DNA of 64,000 bases from Candidatus Kapaibacterium sp. (GTDB lineage: Bacteria > Bacteroidota > Ignavibacteria > Kapaibacteriales > UBA961), in contig JAXLVN010000001.1 of assembly GCA_046328995.1 (NCBI GenBank), positions 39,477-103,476 of the forward strand, read 5' to 3'. The position numbers were made by a program, and so were the translations under genes. The notes under the pieces are model-generated. The model was not told where the DNA came from. It did no database searches and saw only the letters and a program-made list of their open reading frames with translations. Every line of letters begins with the position of its first letter. Positions within the stretch are counted from its first letter, which is position 1. Below, piece after piece: positions 1-62,279 of this stretch.

Positions 1-184
1 GTGATGATACGCTCGTCTAGCGGAGAAGATATCGATGCAGCGTGTGGGCAATTGGCGTTTTCAAAAGTAGCCGAACAGCATGCGGCGGCTGTATCACTAT
101 AATTCATCTCCTGCCTATCGAATCGGACTGCTACTCTACACATCTGCGTCAATAATCGTACTCCCACTTATACAGGTGATCTAC

Positions 185-1129
185 ATGAATGTACTTCGCA
201 ATCTGACAGCTATGCTTGCTTTCGTGCTTGTAAGCGTATTTCCCCTCTCAGCGGCACTCGCGTCCGACTCAACGGATGAGGCGTCGATGGTGCAAAAAAT
301 TGAACCTTCCGACACCAAAAAACACTATGTTCGGCTCAAAAACGGGGATATTCTCACCGGATTTGTTCTTGAAATCATTACCGATGAAAAGGAGGGTGCA
401 GGAATAAAGATCAAAACAGCGATTGGTATTGCTACCATATATGCATCCCAGATTGCGGATATCCGCTTGCTTGAAGAGGCGAATCGCCATACGCACAGAG
501 TGTATATTATGCCGACAGCAGAGCCGATTGGTACCAATCATTTTATCAGTAATTTCGAAGGCGTATTTCTGTATGCCGGTGCAGGATGGAAATTCCTGTC
601 GGTGACTGCAGGACGGACATTTGTGCCGACGGTGCCGGGTTCGGAGCAATTCTCCCTGCTGACGGCAAAAGCAACCGTCTATCAGGGTGACAATGACTAT
701 ATGGCAGGGGGTGTATCGATTGCCCTAGGAGGCAGTCTTGGCTTTTTGAATGCAAAAAATGCTTTGCAGCACATTTTTGGCGCGGCGACGTTTACGATGA
801 CGAAGACCAAGCTCACAGGACTCGTTTTCTATAAGGCAGGGGCGCAGGATTTTTTCACGGCGACGGCCGGCACTCTTGGGAGTGTCAATGTCAAGTATCC
901 GAACGGTGCATTCGGGATAGGAATAGGTATCGATACCAAGCTCAGCGAATGGAATGATTTACGATTTATAGCCGAGGGATGGAACAACGACATCGCTGTT
1001 CCCATGAATGCAGCGGCGCTGCTTGGTATTCGCATAGGGAACACCTCAGTTTCCGCTGATTTTGGAATTGCGGTCTTCCCGGCGCCGGCAATCGTACCCT
1101 GTGTAAGCTTCGCATGGACGCCGTTTTAA
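185..1129 (+). CDS. Hypothetical outer-membrane protein (signal peptide, C-terminal Phe, beta-barrel-like)
   Basis: ORF 80..1129; internal Met at 185 gives MNVLRNLTAMLAFVLVSVFPLSAALA signal peptide; Gly/Ala/Thr-rich alternating strands; terminal ...AWTPF typical of OM beta-barrels. No recognisable family. Confidence 0.45.
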   Translation: MNVLRNLTAMLAFVLVSVFPLSAALASDSTDEASMVQKIEPSDTKKHYVRLKNGDILTGFVLEIITDEKEGAGIKIKTAIGIATIYASQIADIRLLEEANRHTHRVYIMPTAEPIGTNHFISNFEGVFLYAGAGWKFLSVTAGRTFVPTVPGSEQFSLLTAKATVYQGDNDYMAGGVSIALGGSLGFLNAKNALQHIFGAATFTMTKTKLTGLVFYKAGAQDFFTATAGTLGSVNVKYPNGAFGIGIGIDTKLSEWNDLRFIAEGWNNDIAVPMNAAALLGIRIGNTSVSADFGIAVFPAPAIVPCVSFAWTPF

Positions 1130-1224
1130 GTCCTGATTTTCGTTCATTATTTCAATAATCTGAAAAAAAGTTTTGGGTAAATAAAGAAAAGAGTGTATTT
1201 TCGCGCTCTCTAAAACGAGAAAAT

Positions 1225-1297
<73 letters not shown>

Positions 1298-1302
1298 CCC
1301 TA

Positions 1303-1340
1303 AAGCGTTTAATACGAAAGTGTTAAACGCTTTTTTTTAT
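1303..1340 (+). terminator. Rho-independent terminator after tRNA-Phe
   Basis: Hairpin agcgtttaa-tacgaaagtg-ttaaacgct followed by tttttttt. Confidence 0.6.
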
Positions 1341-1372
1341 TGGTAAATTCCGTCCTGTCAGTTGTTTCCCAC

Positions 1373-1547
1373 CGACCATCAACCCTTCCCTCCCAAACAC
1401 GCAACAAGCAAGCATAATGCTCCCGCATTTCCTGAGATTTTGTAAATTTTAGTAGGAAAAGGAAGGTAACTCTATCTGAGGTACGGATGTGAACGTTTCA
1501 GCGGCGAGTGCTGGTGTTTGGTTGTAGTTACCGACCGGACGGGGGAA
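1373..1547 (+). repeat. Conserved ~175-bp intergenic element, copy A1 (cassette-boundary repeat)
   Basis: Shares core cgcatttcctgagattttgtaaattNtagtaggaaaaggaaggtaac...ctatctgaggtacgg...cgtttcagcggcgagtgctggtgtttggttgtag with copies at 3822-4011 and 4524-4718, a 5'-truncated copy at 5697-5808 and a degenerate copy at 2430-2640; ends 38 bp upstream of the next ORF. Confidence 0.7.
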
Positions 1548-1584
1548 TAAACATGACATGTACTATTAATTAGGAGCTGATCAA

Positions 1585-2379
1585 ATGGCAACCTTGTGCA
1601 AAAAAATACTCAGTAGTGCGTTGAGTCTGCTTTTTTTCTTTGTCATCTCATGTACTAAAACAGCTCCTCTCAGAATAAAACAGCCACCATCAACATACCG
1701 AACAGATTGGCATAATAGTTATAAAAACTATACAAATTCATTAGAGGATGCTGCTGAATATATGCCCGGAGATGATGGAGGTGCTATAGGTATGAGAATA
1801 GCTGAAAAGTCACAGCAATTGGTTAATTACCAAAAATTGAAAGCATATATAGATACCATATCAACCCTAAATTCTTGTATAGTGAGAATGTTTAATGAAA
1901 ATATGTATTTTACCACTTTCAATGTATCAAAAAAAAAGATACCATTTGATGGAAAAAAATACCATTTATTTGTAGAAGGGGTTGAATATCCCATGGGGTA
2001 TGTAGATACTTCAGATTGCGTTTGGTTTGTGAAAAACGCAGACAACGTTTTACATTGTATTTATCTCTCTTCCAACGGCGAGGTGCAGGATGAAAAATTG
2101 CCTTATGACAATGCTTTGGAAACCTCTTTACATACAATGCAACGTTGGAAGAAGAGTCGCCAAGTGAGCATTCCCTATGAAAAAAAGTATGGTACGATTG
2201 TGAGCTATTGGGATAAAGGAAACTCATATCATGTATTTTTTCCGTGGATGTGGAATGCTGCTGATTGTGAAAATGGGTGGAAATGTGCAACAAAAGATAC
2301 TTCTGTAAATAATCTGCATTCAGCTATAATGAAATTTCTTTGCATGGCAAAACAAAAGGGTATCGTGGAATCTCAATAG
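1585..2379 (+). CDS. Hypothetical lipoprotein (AT-rich cassette ORF 1)
   Basis: 264-aa ORF with aggag RBS; N-terminus MATLCKKILSSALSLLFFFVISC (lipobox-like ISC); low GC relative to flanks; no recognisable domain. Confidence 0.55.
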   Translation: MATLCKKILSSALSLLFFFVISCTKTAPLRIKQPPSTYRTDWHNSYKNYTNSLEDAAEYMPGDDGGAIGMRIAEKSQQLVNYQKLKAYIDTISTLNSCIVRMFNENMYFTTFNVSKKKIPFDGKKYHLFVEGVEYPMGYVDTSDCVWFVKNADNVLHCIYLSSNGEVQDEKLPYDNALETSLHTMQRWKKSRQVSIPYEKKYGTIVSYWDKGNSYHVFFPWMWNAADCENGWKCATKDTSVNNLHSAIMKFLCMAKQKGIVESQ

Positions 2380-2429
2380 AGAAGGATACAAAAAAATTAG
2401 GACCGTGCATTTCCAGACCGGGCAGTACT

Positions 2430-2640
2430 TTGAGCTGCCCGTCAACACGTACCGCAGAAACGCACTGCACGAAAACATCATCCACCGCTTGCCGCTGAGA
2501 AGCAATAGTATATGGATACGATTTTGTAACTTGTAACCGGTGTAGGAAGTAAATACGTATCCGCAGTTCTGCTGCCCTTGACGTTTCCATAGGCTAGTGT
2601 TGACGGACAGTTGGAAACAACCGACTGGACGGAACCCATA
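2430..2640 (+). repeat. Degenerate copy of the A element (A1')
   Basis: Segments taccgcagaaacgcactgcacgaaaacatcatccaccgcttgccgctgagaagc and gattttgtaacttgtaaccggtgtaggaagtaaa...ggacagttggaaacaaccgactggacgg align with the A-element 5' region and core; ends 14 bp before ORF 2654. Confidence 0.45.
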
Positions 2641-2653
2641 ACCATTATGTAAT

Positions 2654-3202
2654 ATGAAATTTATAGTACTTACATTACTAAGCATTTGTGTTATTACTCA
2701 AGATATAACGCTTCAGTTTTATGAGTATGTGTTAAATGATACCATAAACAGTAGCTTTCTAGTTATTGATATAAAACAAAAATCAATTACTAAAAAAGCA
2801 ATTATCGAAAACACGTACTTAACTCAATATTTTACACTTGCTTTGTCCGATACGTTCAATCGAAAAAGCTATATGAGTATGATGAAAAATAATTTGATTC
2901 ATCATATACCGATTGAGATAAACGATTCCATACTGAAAAATCATCCTGAAATTGTATTTAGTGACATTACACCAACAGAAACTGTGACCGCAAACTCATT
3001 GAAAGGAGTTGATGCCTTTTTAGATATTTATTTCAACAAAAACCGAACGCTGAAATCAAGTAGCTATGGTAGCCAAGTACCTGCTATTATTCAAAAGCTA
3101 TTTGAATGGGGAATAACTACCTATCGTGACCACGAAACACAATTACTATGTTATCATACATTCAAGCCGTTGAAGTATCAACCAAGAACAGGACTGGAAT
3201 AA
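2654..3202 (+). CDS. Hypothetical secreted protein (cassette ORF 2)
   Basis: 182 aa, hydrophobic N-terminus MKFIVLTLLSICVITQ; AT-rich; no recognisable domain. Confidence 0.5.
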   Translation: MKFIVLTLLSICVITQDITLQFYEYVLNDTINSSFLVIDIKQKSITKKAIIENTYLTQYFTLALSDTFNRKSYMSMMKNNLIHHIPIEINDSILKNHPEIVFSDITPTETVTANSLKGVDAFLDIYFNKNRTLKSSSYGSQVPAIIQKLFEWGITTYRDHETQLLCYHTFKPLKYQPRTGLE

Positions 3203-3221
3203 ATCTTATACCCTAAAATAT

Positions 3222-3725
3222 ATGAAACCCTTCATTTATCTATATTCATACATAGCATTTACGGCGTTTTTTATCACTGCTTGCGAGAATAAAACCGAAA
3301 AGGTACCTATTAACCAGAAATCAGAGGTGCTCTTGGGTCACTATGGGGATACGATACAGCTTCGCAGTCCACTTGACAGCTTATTATTGGAATTTGTGGA
3401 ACAAAATCATCTGAATAATATCCATGGTCAACTATATATTAACAAAGTATATCAAGATACCACAGTTATTACCATTGTCTCAAGACAATATATTATTTCT
3501 GAAAGTTCATACGCAGAGCATATATTTGCACATCCATTATTTTATGTAAAAATTAAGAATTGTGTTTTTGATGTTTATACGGGTATTGAAGATGAATTTG
3601 ATTCAAAATTTATATATCCTACGTATGTTCGAGATACTTCAAATTTCATTGTTTGGAGAGTTGATCAGGTCAACGGTCATTTAAAAAGGAATAGAGTAGA
3701 TGATGATATTCCATTCTTTCGTTAG
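3222..3725 (+). CDS. Hypothetical lipoprotein (cassette ORF 3)
   Basis: 167 aa; MKPFIYLYSYIAFTAFFITACENK lipobox-like ITAC; 19-bp gap after ORF2 with no repeat element between them. Confidence 0.5.
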   Translation: MKPFIYLYSYIAFTAFFITACENKTEKVPINQKSEVLLGHYGDTIQLRSPLDSLLLEFVEQNHLNNIHGQLYINKVYQDTTVITIVSRQYIISESSYAEHIFAHPLFYVKIKNCVFDVYTGIEDEFDSKFIYPTYVRDTSNFIVWRVDQVNGHLKRNRVDDDIPFFR

Positions 3726-3821
3726 TGATATTTTGATCTACCTCCAGAATTAGTGGACACTTAGGAAAAGCATTATAGCAAGTATTATCCTATTCAACTT
3801 CTTGACAGCTCAGGTGATTTA

Positions 3822-4011
3822 CCTGACCATCGACACTTCCCGCCGAAACACACTGCAAGCAAGCATCATCCACTGCTAGCAAGTGTAACGCTCCCGCATT
3901 TCCTGAGATTTTGTAAATTGTAGTAGGAAAAGGAAGGTAACCCTATCTGAGGTACGGATGTGCATACGTTTCAGCGGCGAGTGCTGGTGTTTGATTGTAG
4001 AAAGCGTACGG
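3822..4011 (+). repeat. Conserved intergenic element, copy A2
   Basis: Near-identical core to A1/A3 (…cgcatttcctgagattttgtaaattgtagtaggaaaaggaaggtaaccctatctgaggtacggatgtgcatacgtttcagcggcgagtgctggtgtttgattgtagaaagcgtacggac). Confidence 0.7.
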
Positions 4012-4079
4012 ACAAGTATTATTTCAGCTTGTAAATTTAAAACACGTCAACTACAAGATGTTTTAACTAAGAAATTTTT

Positions 4080-4397
4080 ATGGTAAATGATATAAAGTTG
4101 ATGGATAAAATCCAATTACAGAAGTATATTTTTCTTCTTGAGTTGTTAATCACAAAGAAAATTGAAACTGATACTTTTGAGAAATATTTCCTGCAAACTA
4201 GAAGACTTGATAGTTATTGGTTAACCGGTTCTTTTGATCCAATAATAGAAAGAGTTCTGAATACATTTTTTTTAGATGTTGACGAGTACAATCCAGAAAA
4301 TCTATATGATCCAAATGATCAGTATAATATTAATGAAAATGAACTTCTAAAACGTGCAGCAATAGTATTTGTGAAGTTGAAAGATATGATAGGTTAA
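4080..4397 (+). CDS. Hypothetical cytoplasmic protein (cassette ORF 4)
   Basis: 105 aa, no signal peptide, acidic; AT-rich; resembles small immunity-type proteins only by size and context. Confidence 0.45.
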   Translation: MVNDIKLMDKIQLQKYIFLLELLITKKIETDTFEKYFLQTRRLDSYWLTGSFDPIIERVLNTFFLDVDEYNPENLYDPNDQYNINENELLKRAAIVFVKLKDMIG

Positions 4398-4523
4398 AGT
4401 TGGAAATTGAATGTTTTTCCTCTGAACCGTCCGAATAGTGCATTGTGTGATAAAGAAATATCATGCTTCCGTCAGCGGAGAGATCGAACAAAAAGGAGCA
4501 TATTATTTCCTTCCGGTTGGATG

Positions 4524-4718
4524 TTCCCCACCTATCATCATACTACCCGCCGAAACGCTCTACAAACAAGCATCATCCACTGCTTACAACTATAACGCTT
4601 CCGCATTTCCTGAGATTTTGTAAATTGTAGTAGGAAAAGAAAGGTAACCCTATCTGAGGTACGGTGTGCATACGTTTCAGCGGCGAGTGCTGGTGTTTGG
4701 TTGTAGTTACCGACCGGC
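4524..4718 (+). repeat. Conserved intergenic element, copy A3
   Basis: ...cccgccgaaacgctctacaaacaagcatcatccactgcttacaac...cgcatttcctgagattttgtaaattgtagtaggaaaagaaaggtaaccctatctgaggtacggtgtgcatacgtttcagcggcgagtgctggtgtttggttgtagttaccgaccggccagg; 3' end matches A1. Confidence 0.7.
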
Positions 4719-4732
4719 CAGGAAATCTTATT

Positions 4733-4894
4733 GAAGTTGTTTAGGATTATTTTTAGAGCCGATTTTTGGGGTAGAAAACATGCTGACTATGACCGGTATG
4801 CTGTATTTCCAAATGAAAAACAGGCGTCTTAGCCGCCCTCAACTATGGAGGTAAAGCAATGTTTCGCTCTCCGTTGAAAATACTAAACAACTTC
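4733..4894 (+). mobile_element. MITE-like 162-bp element with ~14-bp terminal inverted repeats, copy B1
   Basis: Starts gaagttgtttagga, ends tactaaacaacttc (inverted repeat); almost identical (3 mismatches) to copy at 5356-5517; no coding capacity of its own. Confidence 0.5.
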
Positions 4895-4922
4895 ATTGAT
4901 TATTTAACTTCGCCAATTGATA

Positions 4923-5357
4923 ATGAACGAAAAAAAATCCCAAAAATCGTATATGGAAAAAATCTCTTGGTATTGGAATTTGATTCACTTCTTATTCTTT
5001 AAAATTGATATTTATGCAGCAAAAGTGATAACCAGCCCTATACGATGGTTAGGCAACGCAATAATAAATACAGAACCTTTTAAAAAAAGATTAGAGAAAA
5101 ATGGATCATCGCCGGAAGAATTTACTAAGCAACTTCGTAGTCAAAACGACAACCCAAAGACTAGTAATAGCATTTATATTGCTGGAGGAGTTACAGGAAG
5201 TTTGATTGGATTTACGATTTTTAGCCTTTTTAATTTATTACAGATAATTATCGATGTAAATTTTTTCAAATATATAGTAAATAACGAAATGTACTGGCTC
5301 GTAACTATTTTTGCTTTGACTATACCACCATTGCTTTTCAACCATTCTATTTTATGA
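4923..5357 (+). CDS. Hypothetical membrane protein (cassette ORF 5)
   Basis: ORF track uses TTG at 4917; ATG at 4923 (MNEKKSQKS...); two predicted TM segments (LIGFTIFSLFNLLQIIIDV, WLVTIFALTIPPLLF); flanked by B1 and B2 elements. Confidence 0.45.
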   Translation: MNEKKSQKSYMEKISWYWNLIHFLFFKIDIYAAKVITSPIRWLGNAIINTEPFKKRLEKNGSSPEEFTKQLRSQNDNPKTSNSIYIAGGVTGSLIGFTIFSLFNLLQIIIDVNFFKYIVNNEMYWLVTIFALTIPPLLFNHSIL

Positions 5358-5517
5358 AGTTGTTTAGGATTATTTTTAGAGCCGATTTTTGGGGTAGAAA
5401 ACATGCTGACTATGACCGGTATGCTGTATTTCCAAACGAAAAACAGGCGTCTTAGCCGCCCTCAACTATGGAAGTAAAGCAATGTTTCGCTCTCCGTTGA
5501 AAATCCTAAACAACTTC
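5356..5517 (+). mobile_element. MITE-like 162-bp element, copy B2
   Basis: gaagttgtttagga...tcctaaacaacttc with perfect 14-bp TIR; begins at the stop codon of ORF 4923-5357. Confidence 0.5.
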
Positions 5518-5696
5518 TATATAAAAATGATAAATATTTACAATATTTCAAGAAGTTTAATAAAATGTCAAAAGAGCAGAGAAAGAGGGATTACTGGATA
5601 TCGTTTATCATCGTATTTTCTATGGTAATTTTCATACTGGGCAGTTTCATACTTTATATTCAAGTAAAGCCGGGGTTTAACTAAAAGAATTTTCCC

Positions 5697-5808
5697 TGTT
5701 GTAGTAGGAAAATGGAAGTAAACCCTATCAGAAGCATGAACGTGCATATATTTCAGCAGCAGGTGTTGGCGATTGATTGTAGAAAGCGTACGGACGGGGA
5801 AATAGAAA
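5697..5808 (+). repeat. 5'-truncated, diverged copy of the A element (A4)
   Basis: ttgtagtaggaaaatggaagtaaaccctatcagaagcatgaacgtgcatatatttcagcagcaggtgttggcgattgattgtagaaagcgtacggacgggg aligns to the A core 3' half; 3' end matches A2. Confidence 0.55.
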
Positions 5809-5993
5809 ATTAGAACCGAAAATTATACGTTCCGATATTTCTCAAAACTGCCTTAAAATCCTACCAGGTAGTATGATTGTACATTGCTTTCGATCGCTCT
5901 GTAATTATCCAATAGCGTTTTCTTGGAAAGTGGTACACGCTGATTTGTTGTTGTTTCTGTGCAGATATTCTTATTTTTATCGCTAACAATACA

Positions 5994-7187
5994 GTGGATA
6001 TGACCATGAAATTTCTACTAGTTATACTCTTTACTTTTGTTCTTTCGAATTGTGCTTTTGGGCAACTTCAGCCCTATATGCTCAGTGCGCAAATTGATAG
6101 CCTGCTCCGTGTGGATACCACAGGTTGGAAACACCAAACTGCCGCCGTGAACTACTCAATGATTGGAGCATATATGCAGTCCCTACAAGCCAGGGACAGG
6201 GAATTCCCGAATGCTCGGGGTGCTGAACCAACTCACGAACAACACATGCAGTTCAGTCAATTCACGCCGGTGGATGCGAGAAAGGCAATACTGGAAGAAG
6301 CCACCAAAACGCGCGTACTGATCCTTAATGAAGCGCATCATAACAGTTTGCATCGGATTTTCCTGGCTGACCTCTTACCCGATCTCCATAAACTTGGCTA
6401 TACGTTTATCGGGATGGAAGCGCTCAGTGCTGCCGATACACAATTGCATCGCCGCAAATATCCGGTCATTCAAAGCGGCTATTATACGAAAGAACCGTGT
6501 TTTGGGAATCTTATCAGAGAAGCGCTGGATATTGGATATACGGTGTTTCCGTACGAACAGGATGTTGCCGACAGTGCTCAGGTAAAAGCAGGACGTGAAA
6601 AGGCACAAGCGCTAAACATTGCAACAATCATCAATCGTCATCCGAAGGCAAAAGTACTTCTCTATTGCGGATATGACCACGCTGCAGAAGATACTTTACG
6701 GAATTTCATGGGGTTACCTATGGCAGGGCAACTCAAACTTCTCACCGGAATTGACCCATTTACCATCGACCAAACGGCACTCACCGAATATGTTGTCGTT
6801 GGCAACAGATACCGAAAATTAATACAGGAACGCCATGATGCGGTGTTTGTTGACTCTCAACGACAGTATTTCAACAAAGCTACCTTGCCGAAGAGAATGG
6901 ACTGTAATCTGTACCACCCGAACACAGAATATGAGTATGGCAGACCCACATGGTTGAAAAGAAAAAACACCACATTCGTCCTGCTTCAGGATAAGGTGAA
7001 AATCGACTATCCCTGCCTTATCAAAATATATTTAGCGACCGATGACAAAAGCACTGCCGTACCGATTGACGTGGTGGAAGTCAAATCCGCGAATGAAAAA
7101 GTAGCTTCTGTCATTCTCAAGCGTAGAAAGCACGTAGCAGTCGTCGTCAACGGCAAAGGTGAACAACAAGAATTTCCTGTCAGATAG
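5994..7187 (+). CDS. Hypothetical lipoprotein, possibly ChaN/Tiki-superfamily-like
   Basis: MDMTMKFLLVILFTFVLSNCAFG lipoprotein signal; motifs LILNEAHHNSLHR and LLYCGYDHAAE reminiscent of GExHD-type ChaN/Tiki proteins; family call by eye only. Confidence 0.4.
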   Translation: MDMTMKFLLVILFTFVLSNCAFGQLQPYMLSAQIDSLLRVDTTGWKHQTAAVNYSMIGAYMQSLQARDREFPNARGAEPTHEQHMQFSQFTPVDARKAILEEATKTRVLILNEAHHNSLHRIFLADLLPDLHKLGYTFIGMEALSAADTQLHRRKYPVIQSGYYTKEPCFGNLIREALDIGYTVFPYEQDVADSAQVKAGREKAQALNIATIINRHPKAKVLLYCGYDHAAEDTLRNFMGLPMAGQLKLLTGIDPFTIDQTALTEYVVVGNRYRKLIQERHDAVFVDSQRQYFNKATLPKRMDCNLYHPNTEYEYGRPTWLKRKNTTFVLLQDKVKIDYPCLIKIYLATDDKSTAVPIDVVEVKSANEKVASVILKRRKHVAVVVNGKGEQQEFPVR

Positions 7188-7331
7188 CGTGCATGAGACT
7201 ATCGGAATTGCCGGTGTGTTCGGATGCAGGGAGATATCATTTGCACGCCTAGCTGTTATACTGAATTTGTTCCCATAAATTTCAATTGTGTGTCTATTTT
7301 GATGCAGTAACGCTTTCCTTTTACCCATAGC

Positions 7332-7362
7332 TTTGGAAAAGAATGAAATTATAGTATATTTG
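7332..7362 (+). promoter_or_regulatory. Bacteroidetes-type sigma-A promoter motif (TTTG -33 / TAtaTTTG -7)
   Basis: TTTG at 7332-7335 and TATATTTG at 7355-7362 with 19-bp spacing, ~55 bp upstream of the 7416 start. Confidence 0.4.
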
Positions 7363-7415
7363 TCGTGTTGAATAACTGTTTTCGCTCTATGTTCAATATT
7401 TCCAGGATGTTCACT

Positions 7416-8291
7416 ATGAGAACTCTTCTCCTTATTCTCGCCGTATGCACTCTATTTTCCGGCAAGCTCGTCGCTCAATCCTACCTTTCTCCGCGTGTCG
7501 GTAATGACATTGACCGCATCGAAAAAGAATATTTTGGACTCTTTCCCACAATTAATGGGTTCGTTTCGGCGAAAGCTGTGTCGAAGTCCGAACAATTTAC
7601 GACCCTTACCATTACCACTCACTTCGAGGGGCGCAGAAAAGATACATCCTTGCTCATTGATGCCGGCACAATCGCTAAACTCGCGAAGTATTTCGACAGC
7701 TATGAAACGGTGAGAATGAAGGAAAACACCGTCAACTGGTCTGTTTTTAAAGGAATTGCTGCGGAATCACCGGCGATTAACGATCCATTCCATGAACCCA
7801 TGGAGACGACCATTGAAAGTCTCGACGGAACGAGTATTACGGGTACATTGCTGTGGGCTGAGGACAGTTCGCTTGTATTATGGAAAAGCGAAGAACCCTA
7901 CAATTGGCGAACTCTGGCGCAGAATGCAGGTCCGGTACGTGTCGAGCAGATGAAGCATATTCGCCTCGAGCGTCAGGGTGGATTCACGAGTGGTGCAAAG
8001 ATTGGTGCGTATGCGGGAATTGCGCTTTATATTGTGGGTTTAGGATTGAATTATGAAGATATAAAAATACGAAATTTAGAAAATGTAGCAGGTTATATGT
8101 TCGGAGGTGCTATCCTCACTGCGTGCAGTGCTGTCGCAGGTGGTATTATCGGGTCTATTATTCAGCAGGATTTTCATGCTGATGTCAACGGGAGTATGGA
8201 GAACTATCTACCTCTTGTAGATACCCTTTCCAAATCCTCTGTGATTGAGTCCTATCCGCCGCCGGAATTGGTGCGATTAATTAATAAATAG
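7416..8291 (+). CDS. Hypothetical secreted/membrane protein
   Basis: Internal start MRTLLLILAVCTLFSGKLVAQ (signal peptide); C-terminal Gly-zipper-like TM segments (IGAYAGIALYIVGLGL, GGAILTACSAVAGGIIGSII). Confidence 0.5.
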   Translation: MRTLLLILAVCTLFSGKLVAQSYLSPRVGNDIDRIEKEYFGLFPTINGFVSAKAVSKSEQFTTLTITTHFEGRRKDTSLLIDAGTIAKLAKYFDSYETVRMKENTVNWSVFKGIAAESPAINDPFHEPMETTIESLDGTSITGTLLWAEDSSLVLWKSEEPYNWRTLAQNAGPVRVEQMKHIRLERQGGFTSGAKIGAYAGIALYIVGLGLNYEDIKIRNLENVAGYMFGGAILTACSAVAGGIIGSIIQQDFHADVNGSMENYLPLVDTLSKSSVIESYPPPELVRLINK

Positions 8292-8306
8292 CGAAGGAGA
8301 AAGGAA

Positions 8307-10496
8307 TTACACCATACCTGAACGCTTCCGCAGGAACCATTCAACGGCAAAGAAGAGGAGGGCACTTGCCAGCATCCACGGCAAATTCCAGAGAGCAAAT
8401 TCTGACTTTTGGGTGATTGTACGATCTTTAAATCCGGGGTGTTTTTTCATGTCTTCGAGGAGGGTTGATGCCGTCGCCGGAGTATAGAATTTCCCGCCGG
8501 TGCGCTCAGCCATTTGCCGTAAGAGCTCGGCATTCATCCGAACATTCTGATATTCGAGTGCTATATCGCCTACGCTGAAGCGGCCGTTGTCGGTGCCATA
8601 TGGTTTTTGATTAACGGTCACGCTGCCCGAATATGCATAATCACCTTCCGCAAGTCCATCAATCTGACCGGTATAGCGTCCATTCGAAAGTGGTGTCAGA
8701 TGCACTTCCCGCGACAATTTCCCGCCGGAAATTTTCACCACCACATCCGCATTTTCAATCGGTGCGAGCGTCTGATCATAGACCTGAGCAATGCACTCGA
8801 CTTTCTCGCCGCTTGCATAGAGTTTCTTGCTCGTGCGAATCCGTACGGACTTTTGATTTTCTGTCGTCGTCAGCCATTTGGTGGTGTTTTGCAGGAAAAT
8901 CGAGAGGATATCCGGCATATCCTGACGTCCTTTTGACACTTCAGCAGCTTCGCCTAAAAGCTTCCATCGGTAGAGACCATAGCCGAGAATGGCAACAGAC
9001 TTTTTACCCTGAAACTCACGGGAACTGATAAGAGGTTCGCTCAGCGGTGTCGTATTAACCTTAATCGTCGAAAGCACTTCCGACTCGGGTTTTATTTTGA
9101 CAAACGTTTCGGTGCGGTAAATGGGCGGTAATTGATTCCACAGGTGGGCATCGTCATTAGTACCGGTAATTTTCAGCAGCGAATTCGACAACGCTCTCTG
9201 CGGCACATCGGCGAAGGCGAGAAACTCCTGCGGACGTGAGGAAACAATTGAAAAAGGAAGGTACGGTTCCAAGATTCGTAGCTTGGTATAATCAGTCTGA
9301 AGCGATGCGACAAACAGCAGCGGCTTGCCGCGTTCGCACTCCTGAGCAATCATCTGCACCACGGCAGCAGGAGTCGAGCTGATCGGAAATCCAATTAATA
9401 CAATCGCTTCGGCATCTTTGAGGGATTGAGCGCTTGGCTGTACGTCATAAAATTCAGCGCCCTGCTTTTGGATAAATGCCGTGATGTCAGCACCTTTTTC
9501 TTTGTCTAAGATTGAACGGATAAACGACACATCCGAACTCGGTGCGCCGGCAAAAAGAACGACTTTACGTTTCTGCTTAAGAACGGTGATGAATTCCGAC
9601 AGGGAATTATTTTTAGATGTCAATTCACCGTTTTTGGGAGCAATTGTTGCCGTAAGTTTGTGAATTCCTTCGGTCTTTGGATGATAGTCAAAGAGAGCGG
9701 AATAGGCGGTTTGTTCTCCCCGCAGACGGAGTGTCTGCTCGGCTATCTGAACGCCGTTATCGGACAAAATGAGCTTCGTTTCGGTGCCTTGATCATCTGT
9801 AATGCCGGATGATTTGATGTTTATATTCACCGGCACCGACGCGTCGAGATAGGTAATTTCATTGGTAATAATAGTCTGAATTGCGATGTCTTTGGGTTCG
9901 GACGAGTCACCTATACCTATAATATACAACGGCTTGCCCTGCATCTCAGCTTCATAAAGCGGATTGGCTCCGGTATTAAACGCACCATCGGTTACGAGGA
10001 GTCCTGCCCGGATATTTGCATTTTCGGAGCGTTCTCCCATCCAGCGGATAGCGGCTGCTATATCGGTGAGCTGCCCGTCAAATTTCAGCGAATCGAGGGC
10101 GGTGGCATGAGGAATCGAGAGGACAGTTTCCTGAAATGCTGCGACATCGGCTGCATCATTGATCGAGAGCACATTGGAGGCCGTCAGGGCGGTTTTAAAA
10201 GCATCACGGCGACTGCCGGTAATATCCTTAATTGTCATCGACTGCGAATTATCGAGGAGGACAGCCACATGAGGTACGTCGATGCTTGCCCGCACGAGCG
10301 ATAAAATAGGTTCGAAAAGAGCGATAATGAGTAGCGAAAGAGCAAGCGTACGGAGACTAAGAAGGAGCGCTTTCTTACCGGAGGAAATAGGGGGAATCGT
10401 CGTACGGTAACTATAGAAGGCGAGAGCAAATGCACCGAAGATGGTCAGAGCGACAAACAGCCAAGAACCACTAATACCAAGTGAATATGAATTCAT
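8307..10496 (-). CDS. VWA (von Willebrand factor A) domain-containing membrane protein, BatA-like
   Basis: 729 aa; two N-terminal TM helices, VAVLLDNSQSM VWA-type start motif, C-terminal TM helix (LPWMLASALLFFAVEWFL); architecture typical of Bacteroidetes BatA-like VWA proteins. Confidence 0.55.
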   Translation of the reverse strand: MNSYSLGISGSWLFVALTIFGAFALAFYSYRTTIPPISSGKKALLLSLRTLALSLLIIALFEPILSLVRASIDVPHVAVLLDNSQSMTIKDITGSRRDAFKTALTASNVLSINDAADVAAFQETVLSIPHATALDSLKFDGQLTDIAAAIRWMGERSENANIRAGLLVTDGAFNTGANPLYEAEMQGKPLYIIGIGDSSEPKDIAIQTIITNEITYLDASVPVNINIKSSGITDDQGTETKLILSDNGVQIAEQTLRLRGEQTAYSALFDYHPKTEGIHKLTATIAPKNGELTSKNNSLSEFITVLKQKRKVVLFAGAPSSDVSFIRSILDKEKGADITAFIQKQGAEFYDVQPSAQSLKDAEAIVLIGFPISSTPAAVVQMIAQECERGKPLLFVASLQTDYTKLRILEPYLPFSIVSSRPQEFLAFADVPQRALSNSLLKITGTNDDAHLWNQLPPIYRTETFVKIKPESEVLSTIKVNTTPLSEPLISSREFQGKKSVAILGYGLYRWKLLGEAAEVSKGRQDMPDILSIFLQNTTKWLTTTENQKSVRIRTSKKLYASGEKVECIAQVYDQTLAPIENADVVVKISGGKLSREVHLTPLSNGRYTGQIDGLAEGDYAYSGSVTVNQKPYGTDNGRFSVGDIALEYQNVRMNAELLRQMAERTGGKFYTPATASTLLEDMKKHPGFKDRTITQKSEFALWNLPWMLASALLFFAVEWFLRKRSGMV

Positions 10497-41473: not shown

Positions 41474-42322
41474 CTAAAGAGAATACGATGCTGTGAAGCG
41501 ATTCCTGTTGATACTATTCCTCTGCCGACGCTCCTGCTCGGAAATGTACGGAACTGATTCCAATTGATGATAAAAGGCCAGATGTCTGTCTGTAGTACTG
41601 ATGTACCGGGTTATTGAATTACATACTCGATCTTTTGTGCTTTGTACCGTCTTGTGGTCTTGGCCGAACCATTCATCCGGTACGTCTGCAATACACGATG
41701 CCAGGTCGAGCGTTCGCAACGTGACCAATTCACGCTCGATCATTTCATCCGATAGATGAGCACGATACAAAGGATTCTGCCGAAGTGCCTGCCGCACTGC
41801 CATCGATCCCCCGTAGTCTTTTGCCTGTATCGCCCCCATAATCATAAAGGATGCTTCATAGTCGATGGAATATTCCGAGTCACCGATAAGGAGAATATTC
41901 GTATTGGAAAACGACCTATCGACATTGAGCGTAATCAAATCAAAAATAAACAAGCGAGTACGCGACGAAGACGTTAGCTGTAAAAGCTCTTCACCTTCGA
42001 CATCCTTTGCCTCCGGAAAATACGGCGAAGCACTGTTAATGCCATAACTTTTACGAATTAAGTCCCGAACTTCCGCATCGACTGCCGACACATCGGCGCG
42101 CTCATCGACAATGATTCTTCCTGTGGGCAGGATCGGAAGTCCGAGAGCAAGACCAATTGCCCGGCAAACGGCATCGCCTATCGCAGCTGTCGGACTGCTG
42201 AGCCCGCCGCTGAGCTTGATGAAGACAGAATTGCCGTCGGAATCTAAGGCGGTAATCGGACGTGAAGAACCTTTTTTTACAACGGATAAGACTCGTTGGG
42301 TAAACCTCATTGCAGCTTCCAT
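41474..42322 (-). CDS. HipA_C-like / atypical kinase-fold protein (hypothetical)
   Basis: FIKLSGG glycine-rich region and catalytic-loop-like LNVDRSFSNTNILL (DxxxxN) reminiscent of HipA/CtkA kinases; weak by-eye assignment. Confidence 0.3.
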   Translation of the reverse strand: MEAAMRFTQRVLSVVKKGSSRPITALDSDGNSVFIKLSGGLSSPTAAIGDAVCRAIGLALGLPILPTGRIIVDERADVSAVDAEVRDLIRKSYGINSASPYFPEAKDVEGEELLQLTSSSRTRLFIFDLITLNVDRSFSNTNILLIGDSEYSIDYEASFMIMGAIQAKDYGGSMAVRQALRQNPLYRAHLSDEMIERELVTLRTLDLASCIADVPDEWFGQDHKTVQSTKDRVCNSITRYISTTDRHLAFYHQLESVPYISEQERRQRNSINRNRFTASYSL

Positions 42323-60251: not shown

Positions 60252-60722
60252 ATGCCTACACATCCACAACCCAATCCTCCTCTCCACACCTTCGGCACTC
60301 CACCGCCAGACGGACTTTGTGCAACCCGGGAAGCAGTCTATGCCGTTGTACGGGAAAAGGATATGATCGCAGCCGTGCAGACTGCACGCGGGTATTTCCT
60401 GCCCGGTGGAGGAGTCGAAGACAACGAAACCGTGATCGAAGCATTGGTGCGGGAAGTGTTTGAAGAACTCGGCTGGGCGATTATTATTCATGACCCGCTT
60501 CCTGTGGTGCAGCAATATCTGTTTTCAGCGGCGAAGCAACAGCATATTCTGACGACGGCACGGTTTTTTAATGCAACGTTTTGCGCCGAGATATGCGAAC
60601 CTCTCGAAGATGACCACAAGCTTGTCTGGCTACATCAATCGGAGGCCGAAGAAATGCTGTTTACCGAGTCGATGCGGTGGGCGGTGAAGCAGATGGGAAT
60701 TCGGTTTTTTTTCAACACGTAG
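60252..60722 (+). CDS. NUDIX hydrolase
   Basis: Nudix box GGGVEDNETVIEALVREVFEELGW. Confidence 0.7.
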   Translation: MPTHPQPNPPLHTFGTPPPDGLCATREAVYAVVREKDMIAAVQTARGYFLPGGGVEDNETVIEALVREVFEELGWAIIIHDPLPVVQQYLFSAAKQQHILTTARFFNATFCAEICEPLEDDHKLVWLHQSEAEEMLFTESMRWAVKQMGIRFFFNT

Positions 60723-60900
60723 AGACGCAAAATCTTGCGTCTCTACAGGATAGGCGGATTATCATTTCCCGTCCTGTCGGTTGGAAACAACCAACCGAAC
60801 CGGAATTCGGTTTTTTTCTACACGTAGAGACGCAAAATCTTGCGTCTCTACAGGATAGGCGGATTATCATTTCCTTCGGTCGGTTGTAGCAACCGACCGT
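60696..60900 (+). repeat. Tandem ~105-bp repeat (2 units), each with a 12-bp-stem hairpin, overlapping the NUDIX stop codon
   Basis: Units cacgtagagacgcaaaatcttgcgtctctacaggataggcggattatcatttcc at 60716-60769 and 60821-60874 (identical); each contains hairpin gtagagacgcaa-aatc-ttgcgtctctac; extra hairpins cggttgg-aaacaa-ccaaccg and cggtcggtt-gtagc-aaccgaccg. Confidence 0.7.
60789..60815 (+). terminator. Putative rho-independent terminator inside the tandem repeat
   Basis: aaccgaa-ccggaa-ttcggtt followed by ttttt. Confidence 0.4.
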
Positions 60901-60959
60901 ACGGGAAATTCGTTATTTCATTGATCATTAAAGAATTATATTTCTCTTACAAGGTGCGT

Positions 60960-62279
60960 ATGATAAAACCAAGCCTGCGTTTGTTTGATCTGGTGATGAT
61001 TGTCGTTTCGATGGTCATCGGCATCGGAATTTTTCGGAATCCAGCGATTATCGCTGCAAGTGCGGGTAGTGAAACAATCTTCTACAGCGCGTGGATTGTA
61101 GGCGCTATTGTCAGCATTTGCGGCGCGCTGACGTTTTCGGAGATTGGTTCACGTTTGCCGGTTGCGGGTGGGTATTTTACGATGTTCACCGTGTGCTATT
61201 CTCCGCGGGTTGCGTTTATGCTGATATGGACGTATATCCTTTTGAATGCAGGAGCTACGGCAGCGGTAGCGTTTACGGGAGCACAATATATTACACCGGT
61301 TATTTTGCCGGGAATGGCGCCGGGAATGGGAGAAAAACTTGTTTTTTGGGGAATAATGCTGCTCCTTTTCGGTATTAATTTCCTTGGAATTCGGCTCGGT
61401 GCCGCCGCGCAGAATATGCTGAGTGTGATCAAAATAATTTTAATGTTAATTTTCATTTCTGCGATTTTCTTTTTGCCGGAAAGCGTTTCCGGTCAACCAC
61501 TTGCCGCATCATCTGTGCCTGCCGGAAATATCCTGTCTATGCTTGGCGTGAGCTTGATTGCAGTGTTTTTTAGCTATGGCGGCTATCAGAATACATCCAA
61601 TCTTGGCGGGGATGTCGAGAACCCTCAAAAGAATATTCCACGAGGAATTATCATCGCCATTTCGGTGGTGATGGTGCTGTATCTGCTGATTAATTATGTG
61701 TATGTGACGGCGCTTGGATTCGAGAATCTCAAAACTTCGCCTTTAGTTGCTGCTGATTTGGCGACTATCTTGTTTGGTAAAGCAGGGGCAACGTTTGCAT
61801 CAGTTGCTATATTTATATCAGTCTTAGGGTTTATTAATACATCGCTTTTGTTTAATCCGCGCGTGCTGTATGCAATGGCGGAGGATGGAATTTTACCGGG
61901 GATTTTCAAGAAAGTACATGAGAAAAAACAGGTGCAGGAATTCGCGTTAGTGTTCTTTACGGGACTTGTGATTCTGATGTTCGTCCTGCTGCAATCCTAC
62001 AACAACCTCCTGAATTATGTCATGTTTAACGATACCATTTCTCTCGCACTCGCCGCGATGTGTATCTTCATTCTGCGGAAGAAAAAGGTAGGCAATGACA
62101 CGCCGGGCTATCGCGTGCAGTGGTTCCCAATTATTCCAGCGATATTTATTCTCATGCAACTCAGCGTAACGGCGAATGTCGTGTATTCCGATCCCATGAA
62201 TTCCCTCATTGGGTGCGCGGTGATGTTGTGCGGGTATCCGATGTATTCGATGTTGAAAAAAGTATCCACGAAGTCCTGA
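60960..62279 (+). CDS. APC-family amino acid permease
   Basis: Start at MIKPSLRLFDLVMIVVSMVIGIGIFRNP (typical APC N-terminus); ~12 TM helices. Confidence 0.7.
   Translation: MIKPSLRLFDLVMIVVSMVIGIGIFRNPAIIAASAGSETIFYSAWIVGAIVSICGALTFSEIGSRLPVAGGYFTMFTVCYSPRVAFMLIWTYILLNAGATAAVAFTGAQYITPVILPGMAPGMGEKLVFWGIMLLLFGINFLGIRLGAAAQNMLSVIKIILMLIFISAIFFLPESVSGQPLAASSVPAGNILSMLGVSLIAVFFSYGGYQNTSNLGGDVENPQKNIPRGIIIAISVVMVLYLLINYVYVTALGFENLKTSPLVAADLATILFGKAGATFASVAIFISVLGFINTSLLFNPRVLYAMAEDGILPGIFKKVHEKKQVQEFALVFFTGLVILMFVLLQSYNNLLNYVMFNDTISLALAAMCIFILRKKKVGNDTPGYRVQWFPIIPAIFILMQLSVTANVVYSDPMNSLIGCAVMLCGYPMYSMLKKVSTKS

Follow-up and report, generated by a model that had tools for sequence, protein, structure and literature searches.

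Immediately downstream of the tRNA-Phe gene of Candidatus Kapaibacterium sp., small AT-rich (adenine- and thymine-rich) genes are arranged in cassettes, and a non-coding repeat element recurs at the cassette boundaries. The array was analyzed in a window of 64,000 nucleotides (assembly GCA_046328995.1, contig JAXLVN010000001.1, positions 39,477 to 103,476 of the forward strand), and all coordinates given for it below are those of the window. The locus resembles known orphan immunity arrays and has distinct features, namely the non-coding inverted-repeat element and the anchoring at a tRNA gene. We give a probability of roughly 0.55 to the reading that it is a small lineage-specific polyimmunity islet in which the element copies are the recombination substrate for cassette turnover.

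In this reading, the cassettes, which carry one or two AT-rich genes each, would most likely neutralize toxins from competing bacteria, for example metallopeptidase tips of the Rhs type and tRNases that resemble colicin D. The co-oriented element copies would serve as the substrate for the deletion, swapping and addition of cassettes, most likely by homologous recombination among the copies of the array and with incoming copy-bearing DNA from related strains, and illegitimate deletion would supplement this route. A recombinase encoded in cis would thus be unnecessary. The account by homologous recombination fits because one copy of the element is a hybrid and others are truncated or reduced to mini-elements, and because the cassettes shared with a relative are more similar than a core gene. 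We infer that the recombination is homologous rather than dependent on an unlinked site-specific enzyme and that the cassette genes protect the cell, and the same applies to the mode in which the cassettes are transcribed.

Organization of the Cassette Array

The tRNA-Phe (GAA) gene, the left anchor of the variable locus, is positioned at 1224-1300 on the plus strand (ARAGORN; Rfam tRNA, 72.7 bits). It has a Bacteroidota-type promoter, TTTG-N20-TATTTTCG, at 1172-1203 (promoter motif scan) and is followed on the same strand by a terminator hairpin with a 14-bp stem at 1302-1333 (terminator scan). RlmN and an outer-membrane-like gene are its upstream neighbors. As the original prediction had described, five AT-rich open reading frames (ORFs) of 264, 182, 167, 105 and 146 aa follow on the plus strand (ORF list) and the guanine-cytosine (GC) content drops, being 0.28-0.36 in the cargo ORFs, compared with 0.44-0.50 in the element copies and 0.467 in the remaining window.

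The array comprises four cassette units with five genes, together with five element copies. The first gene, ORF1 (1585-2379, plus strand), encodes a predicted lipoprotein of 264 aa with the lipobox VISC. It is followed by ORF2 (2654-3202, plus strand; 182 aa), which has an N-terminal signal or anchor helix, and by ORF3 (3222-3725, plus strand), a predicted lipoprotein of 167 aa with the lipobox ITAC. ORF2 and ORF3, in this order and separated by 19 bp, form one two-gene cassette. The notion of one element per cassette holds in so far as the repeats sit at cassette boundaries; there is not one for each ORF, as ORF2 and ORF3 share a single copy. ORF4 (4080-4397, plus strand) encodes a cytoplasmic protein of 105 aa, and ORF5 (4917-5684, plus strand) a multi-pass membrane protein with its likely start at the ATG at 4923. 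As found, ORF5 amounts to 146 aa with a stop at 5355-5357; a reconstruction in which an inserted repeat (described below) is removed gives 200 aa.

The right flank is formed by a lipoprotein gene of 397 aa (5994-7187, plus strand), which has a host-like GC content of 0.457 and a weak ChaN/Tiki-like match (Pfam PF04187, 21.3 bits, under the cutoff of 27.7). This gene is probably not a cassette. A copy of the element had also been placed ahead of it; such a copy does exist, but half of it is missing, and about 190 bp separate its end from the gene.

Among the 41 ORFs of the window, no match to the tyrosine recombinase/Phage_integrase family was obtained with Pfam, in agreement with the original prediction, and the same search returned no toxin, Rhs or secretion-system gene. 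The sequence before position 1 was approached through the relative L009, in which a recombinase is likewise absent from the 10 kb upstream. The 3' end of tRNA-Phe is not repeated anywhere else in the 64-kb window when up to 3 mismatches are allowed. With neither an integrase nor a distant repeat of the tRNA 3' end, the locus does not count as a tRNA-integrated genomic island. Elsewhere in the window, two methyltransferase genes flank a HipA_2-like kinase gene at 41474-42322 (Pfam, E 2e-14), which is unrelated to the array.

The Repeat Element and Its Symmetry

Copies of the element were located with an nhmmer profile built from the copies themselves, with which both strands of the window were searched. 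Five copies were obtained, all on the plus strand: c1 at 1347-1554 (E 7e-61, match 1343-1554), c2 at 2411-2640 (E 5e-62, match 2408-2648), c3 at 3807-4022 (E 3e-73, match 3797-4028), c4 at 4505-4726 (E 2e-68, match 4504-4730) and c5 at 5697-5801 (E 1.3e-17, match 5698-5801). The last of these is a right half only, corresponding to profile positions 125-227; it begins 12 bp past the stop codon of ORF5 and closes the array on the right. The five co-oriented copies of the original prediction were all recovered, and their 5' boundaries extend 15-25 bp further out, since a terminal ATTTCC is where the element begins. In the alignments, its termini read 5'-ATTTCC...GGAAAT-3'.

Full copies are 208-230 bp long and non-coding. 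The copies c1, c3 and c4 are mutually 87-90% identical; c2, a divergent subtype of about 70% identity, reaches 70-74% with the others, and c5 75-84%. The other 58 kb of the window contain no significant copy (nhmmer), and the repeat search places the overlapping direct-repeat families D1, D3 and D4 entirely within 1364-5798. The best-conserved part is the central block GATTTTGTAAnTTGTA...GGAAG...TATC...CGTTTC.

In the profile search, the first approximately 55 positions of the element also matched its own 3' end on the opposite strand. If the left arm of c1 is compared with the reverse complement of the c2 right arm, 39 of 44 positions agree (z 15-23 against shuffled sequences), and the same holds for the left arm of the corresponding copy in the relative L002, where c1 is kept at the same position. 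It follows that the ancestral element had terminal inverted repeats of about 45 nt, TTCCGTCCTGTCGGTTGTTTCCnACnGACCnTCAAC, with the consensus TTCCGTCCTGTCGGTTGTTTCC. The present copies keep different parts of them. The left arm of c1 keeps the ancestral repeat TTCCGTCCTGTCAGTTGTTTCCCACCGACCATCAAC, while its right arm has two internal deletions; the right arm of c2 retains the complete repeat ...GTTGACGGACAGTTGGAAACAACCGACTGGACGGAA; the 3' end of c3 is the variant ...GATTGTAGAAAGCGTACGGAC, common to c5; and c4 has the ends ATTTCCTTCCGGTTGG ... CCGACCGGCCAGGAAAT. A short 3' palindrome noticed earlier (GGTTG..CGACC, helix 7 of the consensus fold) is present and is part of these larger terminal repeats, which the original prediction had missed. 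The best-preserved pair of arms, c1 left (1347-1390) and c2 right (2596-2640), brackets ORF1 like the outer ends of a composite unit, an arrangement that may be meaningful or may be due to the chance survival of these two arms.

This symmetry calls to mind the attC sites of integrons. In an attC-like scheme, the locus would be an integron-like platform, and a recombinase encoded elsewhere or lost would recognize the arms, perhaps as folded single-stranded DNA (ssDNA), and move circular cassettes, with c1 beside the tRNA gene as the primary attachment site. Imperfect inverted-repeat ends around a center of variable length, the uniform orientation of the copies and a number of elements equal to the number of cassettes plus one would suit such a scheme. 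Known attC sites are about 57-141 bp long and carry R''-L''/L'-R' boxes that form a stable imperfect ssDNA hairpin. The element, at 208-230 bp, is longer, and its termini show no RYYYAAC/GTTRRRY boxes. The arms inside one present-day copy are poorly complementary (z 0.7-4.9), through drift or deletions, and when full copies are folded as ssDNA they pair end to end with z of merely -1.0 to -1.7, so that the attC-like site offered as one option in the original prediction was not borne out by its fold. Single-copy folds as RNA or ssDNA were altogether unremarkable (z 0 to -1.7). The consensus energies of RNAalifold are weak and similar on both strands, with positive covariation terms. In the pair count, about 90% of cells are paired with 5 double changes, which essentially reflect one split of c2 from the others, in a structure derived from the same alignment. 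Together with the absence of an integrase from the 64-kb window and from the 10 kb upstream in L009, these results make an attC-like site quite unlikely.

The element could instead be mainly an expression module, that is, a promoter and/or 5' leader supplied to each cassette, with an incidental role in recombination; both roles could coexist. The copies have the orientation of the ORFs and end 14-64 bp ahead of the starts of ORF1, ORF2 and ORF4, the central block is the part best conserved, and a remnant of the right arm survives before the cassettes of the relative L001. Furthermore, the terminator of the tRNA gene implies that the array needs a promoter of its own. Yet the promoter option of the original prediction found no counterpart in the sequence, for the Bacteroidota-type motif TTTG-N17-23-TAnnTTTG occurs in none of the copies, though tRNA-Phe has one, and a sigma-70 scan places no site inside any of them. 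Neither a promoter nor a leader would be expected to show inverted-repeat symmetry, ORF3 lacks an individual copy, and c5 is a half copy at a distance from the next gene. No strand-specific structure is seen, and Rfam, searched over 1-9000 at E<=1, matched the tRNA alone and no family for the element. As its principal function, expression is thus unlikely.

An origin of the element from the end of an rhs core, of the kind seen in orphan Rhs-CT arrays, was also considered. This was rejected in view of the 14-64 bp to the immunity starts, the lack of a conserved frame and the inverted-repeat symmetry. Taken as it stands, the element is a non-coding repeat with inverted-repeat symmetry at the DNA level, in which no structured RNA, attC-like hairpin or recognizable promoter could be demonstrated.

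Distribution of the Element and a Separate Transposable Repeat

Public collections were scanned with degenerate exact patterns of the right core of the element. Among 185,579 species-representative genomes, one contig carries it, L001 ("Bacteroidota bacterium MAG_525", genome JBPOHH01), and among 241 million metagenome records two do, L002 and L003. All three matches represent this tRNA-Phe locus, either in the same lineage or in sister lineages. The locus is present in the samples ERZ27248705, ERZ27268158, SRR1027651, SRR14234068, SRR14234082 and SRR26348423. The pattern had no match in any Bacteroidales genome of the species-genome scan, nor was the element found in the public collections of viral contigs, plasmids and phages, and nhmmer did not find it in the more distant relatives L010, L013 and L014. 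As far as public data show, it does not appear to be a widespread repetitive extragenic palindrome (REP) or miniature inverted-repeat transposable element (MITE), and the distinction from a genome-wide REP that the original prediction had drawn is upheld. The junction at c5 recurs in L003, an independent metagenome contig. Positions 1-580 of L003 (WBZP01221240.1) match the window at 98.5% over 545 bp, which cover c5 and the start of the 397-aa gene; from part-way through this gene the contig is unrelated to the window, probably as an assembly chimera.

A true MITE does occur in the array. It is 162 bp long, unrelated to the main element, has the inverted repeats GAAGTTGTTTAGG/CCTAAACAACTTC and generates 3-bp target duplications. 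The two copies of the window are 98% identical. Copy 1 (4733-4894, plus strand; repeat family D2) lies 6 bp after c4 with the duplication ATT, and L001 has the empty site for it. Copy 2 (5356-5517) interrupts ORF5, with TAT duplicated at 5353-5355 and 5518-5520. A further end of the same MITE stands beside a different cassette at 1-66 of L004, a contig of the same species.

The main element might, in the same manner, be an ordinary MITE that was transposed repeatedly into an AT-rich accessory region, its association with cassettes being coincidental. Terminal inverted repeats of about 45 nt, a length of about 220 bp and the lack of coding capacity are all features of a MITE, and the 162-bp MITE, with its clear target duplications, has struck the locus at least three times. 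What argues against it is that none of the copies of the element is flanked by a visible target-site duplication, and that all five lie in one orientation within 4.5 kb while the other 58 kb are free of them. In the public collections the element is confined to a single contig of the L001 genome and, in the metagenomes, to the tRNA-Phe locus. Its copies stand at cassette boundaries and never inside ORFs, while the true MITE disrupts ORF5. An ordinary MITE is therefore an unlikely explanation.

One other repeat of the window lies outside the array. Two direct repeats of 64 bp (60706-60769 and 60811-60874; 98% identical, 105 bp apart) at the 5' end of an amino-acid permease gene (60840-62279) each hold a perfect 28-nt hairpin, GTAGAGACGCAAAATCTTGCGTCTCTAC, and the profile of the main element gives weak, non-significant matches near them (E 0.0015-0.05).

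Variation of Cassette Content Between Genomes

The content of the cassettes varies between strains and between sister species. In L004, which comes from another sample and is 99% identical to the window over 2.4 kb, the place of ORF1 upstream of c2 is taken by a cassette encoding a 123-aa membrane protein, and the sequence becomes homologous to the window at the left terminus of the element. In the sister species represented by L001, the core flank, judged from the outer-membrane-like gene, shares 85.8% identity with the window. After its tRNA-Phe gene follow an 89-aa ORF, a 202-aa ORF, a pseudogene of ORF2 (94.7% identical), a 181-aa ORF, one full element and ORF5 (97.4% identical in its 5' part and without MITE copy 1). 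ORF1 and ORF4 are missing, and the 181-aa ORF, which is unrelated to ORF3, replaces it. ORF2 and ORF5 are closer between the window and L001 than is the core gene (94.7 and 97.4%, compared with 85.8%). A guess that the 202-aa cassette of L001 is SUKH-like was not borne out by Pfam.

The single full element of L001 is a hybrid, being c3-like at the informative sites of the 5' half and c4-like at the 3' end. It is the product that would be expected if recombination between two element copies had lost or gained the ORF4 cassette, which is absent in L001 and present in the window; both of its breakpoints lie inside elements. Mini-elements of about 45-50 bp remain between the other cassettes of L001 and consist of the left terminus and the right arm AACAAC-N5-GGACGG, a motif for which 0.11 occurrences per 64 kb are expected by chance. 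The minis thus keep both termini, and this, like the presence or absence of the ORF4 cassette, would be understandable under the attC-like scheme as well. That scheme is opposed by the position of the breakpoints, which fall at the element and vary in position within it, at the left terminus for c2 and c3, in the center for c5 and in the right arm for the minis of L001. A single crossover point is not what these junctions show.

The same tRNA-Phe gene anchors different content in L001, L002, L010 and L013. In L002, which is about 76-80% identical to the window, the tRNA gene, element and ORF1 are collinear with it. In L010, one small ORF past the tRNA gene is followed by an assembly gap (N-gap), which makes this contig uninformative. 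In L013 and L014 (11279-12523), whose flanking outer-membrane-like protein is 64% identical, a tyrosine integrase of 414 aa with the domains Arm-DNA-bind_5 and Phage_integrase (weak precomputed matches) is encoded directly 3' of tRNA-Phe, and the contigs stop about 500 bp beyond. The integrase at this position would agree with an attC-like platform, and since both relatives carry it there, the tRNA-Phe site is an integration hotspot in the clade. The original proposal of a tRNA hotspot with unrelated cargo is supported by these relatives, and so is that of cassette shuffling between strains, for L004 and L001 differ from the window with breakpoints at the repeat, the opposite of the invariant, syntenic content that had been named as speaking against it.

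Candidate Immunity Proteins

The search for immunity families suggested in the original prediction yielded immunity-type evidence for three of the five genes, from Pfam for ORF4 and from gene neighborhoods for ORF1 and ORF2. ORF4 is a colicin-D/ImmD-like protein that matches PF09204 (Colicin_immun, "bacterial self-protective colicin-like immunity") with E 4.9e-13 and 49.9 bits, the cutoff being 22.

The homologs of ORF1 form only 6 clusters, all from Kapabacteria or Ignavibacteria. One of them, P0058 of contig L018, is 63% identical to ORF1 and starts 34 nt downstream of the gene for an RHS-repeat protein of at least 1,100 aa, in which the core end PVVYSDPSGL is followed by a C-terminal tip with the motif HEMTH. 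A small gene directly behind an Rhs toxin tip is the canonical arrangement of Rhs toxin and immunity genes. L018 becomes homologous to the window about 25 nt ahead of the ATG of ORF1, and the stop codon of the L018 toxin occupies the place where the window has the end of c1. The structural model of ORF1, with a predicted local distance difference test (pLDDT) score of 54.9, was too poor for use.

ORF2 belongs to an unannotated family of 82 representative clusters. Its member P0144, on contig L020, begins 10 nt after a Peptidase_M91-like HExxH tip of 102 aa (HEFASH), in an Rhs orphan array. The array itself (L020, 1-8789; GCA_048222695.1, JBAMLB010005684.1) is co-oriented and headed by a protein with RHS_repeat and DUF6443; it mixes orphan toxin tips (CHAP, Peptidase_M91-like), small unannotated genes and a MORN_2 protein, another RHS fragment stands at the end of the contig, and the whole is a typical orphan toxin/immunity array. 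The AlphaFold model of ORF2 is confident (pLDDT 92.7) and found no PDB counterpart in the structure comparison. A sequence search of PDB with ORF4 and with the ORF2 profile returned nothing meaningful.

ORF1, ORF3 and ORF5 have no family in Pfam, NCBIfam or PADLOC, and NCBIfam and PADLOC gave no match for any of the cassette proteins. Five short, independent contigs (L004, L006-L008) all have ORF3 linked to ORF2. Judged from these matches and neighborhoods, ORF1, ORF2 and ORF4 are best read as orphan immunity genes, and because three of the five genes are read in this way and the window contains no toxin genes, the cluster would be a polyimmunity locus.

Relation to Known Immunity Arrays and Integrons

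Polyimmunity loci are reportedly a component of polymorphic toxin systems. The present locus resembles them in that unrelated immunity families are clustered without a toxin gene, with homologs beside Rhs-type toxins elsewhere; it differs in that their definition includes neither a repeat element nor anchoring at a tRNA gene, and in that two of the five genes here have no immunity evidence. With three immunity families and no toxin domain in the window, it belongs among the polyimmunity loci.

The original prediction had also likened the array to integrons and to recombinase-associated acquired interbacterial defense (rAID) clusters. The rAID-1 clusters of Bacteroidales are defined by a tyrosine recombinase at the 5' end that is XerD-like and at least 44% identical to BF9343_RS08045, at least two co-directional downstream genes with a GC content of 41% or less, repetitive intergenic motifs and orphan immunity cargo (Ross et al., bioRxiv 10.1101/471110; PMC12247911). 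The likeness lies in co-oriented short genes of 100-300 codons that include orphan immunity genes, in a cargo GC content far under that of the host, in intergenic repeats that may be comparable, in strain-variable content and in a host that is, in the wider sense, from Bacteroidota. In contrast to rAID-1, this array has no XerD-like recombinase in the window, is anchored at tRNA-Phe, is small and resides in Kapabacteria rather than Bacteroidales, and its repeat is not a short motif but about 220 bp long with terminal inverted repeats. Low GC content and orphan immunity genes are shared with rAID-1; the recombinase is not, and the locus does not qualify as such a cluster.

With integrons the array has in common one-way, promoterless-looking cassettes between imperfect-palindrome repeats, and repeats that resemble each other as in sedentary chromosomal integrons. 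Clusters of attC sites without an integrase are known as CALINs, and here too an integrase is absent nearby. The element differs from all of these in being longer than any attC, in having neither a stable hairpin nor R''/R' boxes, and in its variable breakpoints and host-like rather than cassette-like composition. There is no adjacent intI, and by length, boxes and fold the element is not an attC site. Membership of either class, integron or rAID-1, was thus not sustained, no recombinase being present in the window or in the 10 kb upstream in L009.

In Vibrio cholerae, arrays of orphan type VI secretion system (T6SS) immunity genes arise through successive displacement together with homologous recombination (Kirchberger et al., 2017; PMC5361080). 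As in the present locus, effector-less immunity genes accumulate there, the arrays differ in close strains, recombination at conserved flanks has been proposed and an integrase was not found. The Vibrio arrays, however, stand behind an active effector-immunity module and have coding handles (vgrG or the 5' parts of effectors), whereas here toxin and secretion genes are absent from the vicinity and a dedicated non-coding repeat provides the handle.

Homologous Recombination or an Unlinked Enzyme

Several points weigh against a polyimmunity islet that is turned over by homologous recombination. Such recombination does not account for how a new gene is initially placed between two element copies, and one cassette boundary, between ORF2 and ORF3 in the window as against ORF2 and the 181-aa ORF in L001, has no element. 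The inverted-repeat termini are kept in full and mini copies, which hints at recognition by a protein and is needless for homologous recombination. In the host genome, the element and recombinases were surveyed over the 64-kb window, which leaves room for further copies or an unlinked recombinase. The comparison of cassettes with the core uses one core gene, an outer-membrane-like gene that possibly evolves fast. Finally, immunity evidence concerns three genes of five, of which ORF1 and ORF2 each rest on one neighborhood.

Because the capture of new genes and the persistence of both termini in the minis are unexplained, there is room for an unlinked enzyme that recognizes the arms. The element might then be a new cassette recombination site, analogous and unrelated to attC, that is used by an unlinked recombinase or transposase of Kapabacteria. 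This is improbable; if true, the locus would be a tRNA-anchored, integron-like platform reserved for the capture of immunity genes, and the preservation of both termini in full copies and in mini copies of about 45 bp would reflect recognition of the arms by the protein.

Implications for Kapabacteria

Orphan immunity arrays are known mainly from gut Bacteroidales, as acquired interbacterial defense (AID) and rAID clusters, and from Proteobacteria, and the route by which genes are gained and lost in them is unclear. The locus at tRNA-Phe, if read correctly as a polyimmunity islet, shows the orphan-immunity strategy in an uncultured environmental lineage, the Kapabacteria, with a distinct repeat and without a recombinase in cis. 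It also points to three candidate immunity families, in ORF1, ORF2 and the cassettes of L001, one of which has a confident predicted fold without a match in PDB. The natural variants of the element, hybrid, truncated and mini copies, already expose breakpoints, and the locus may therefore serve as a compact system in which to ask whether homologous recombination at the repeats is enough to turn over the immunity cassettes of this lineage or whether an unrecognized trans-acting enzyme is at work.

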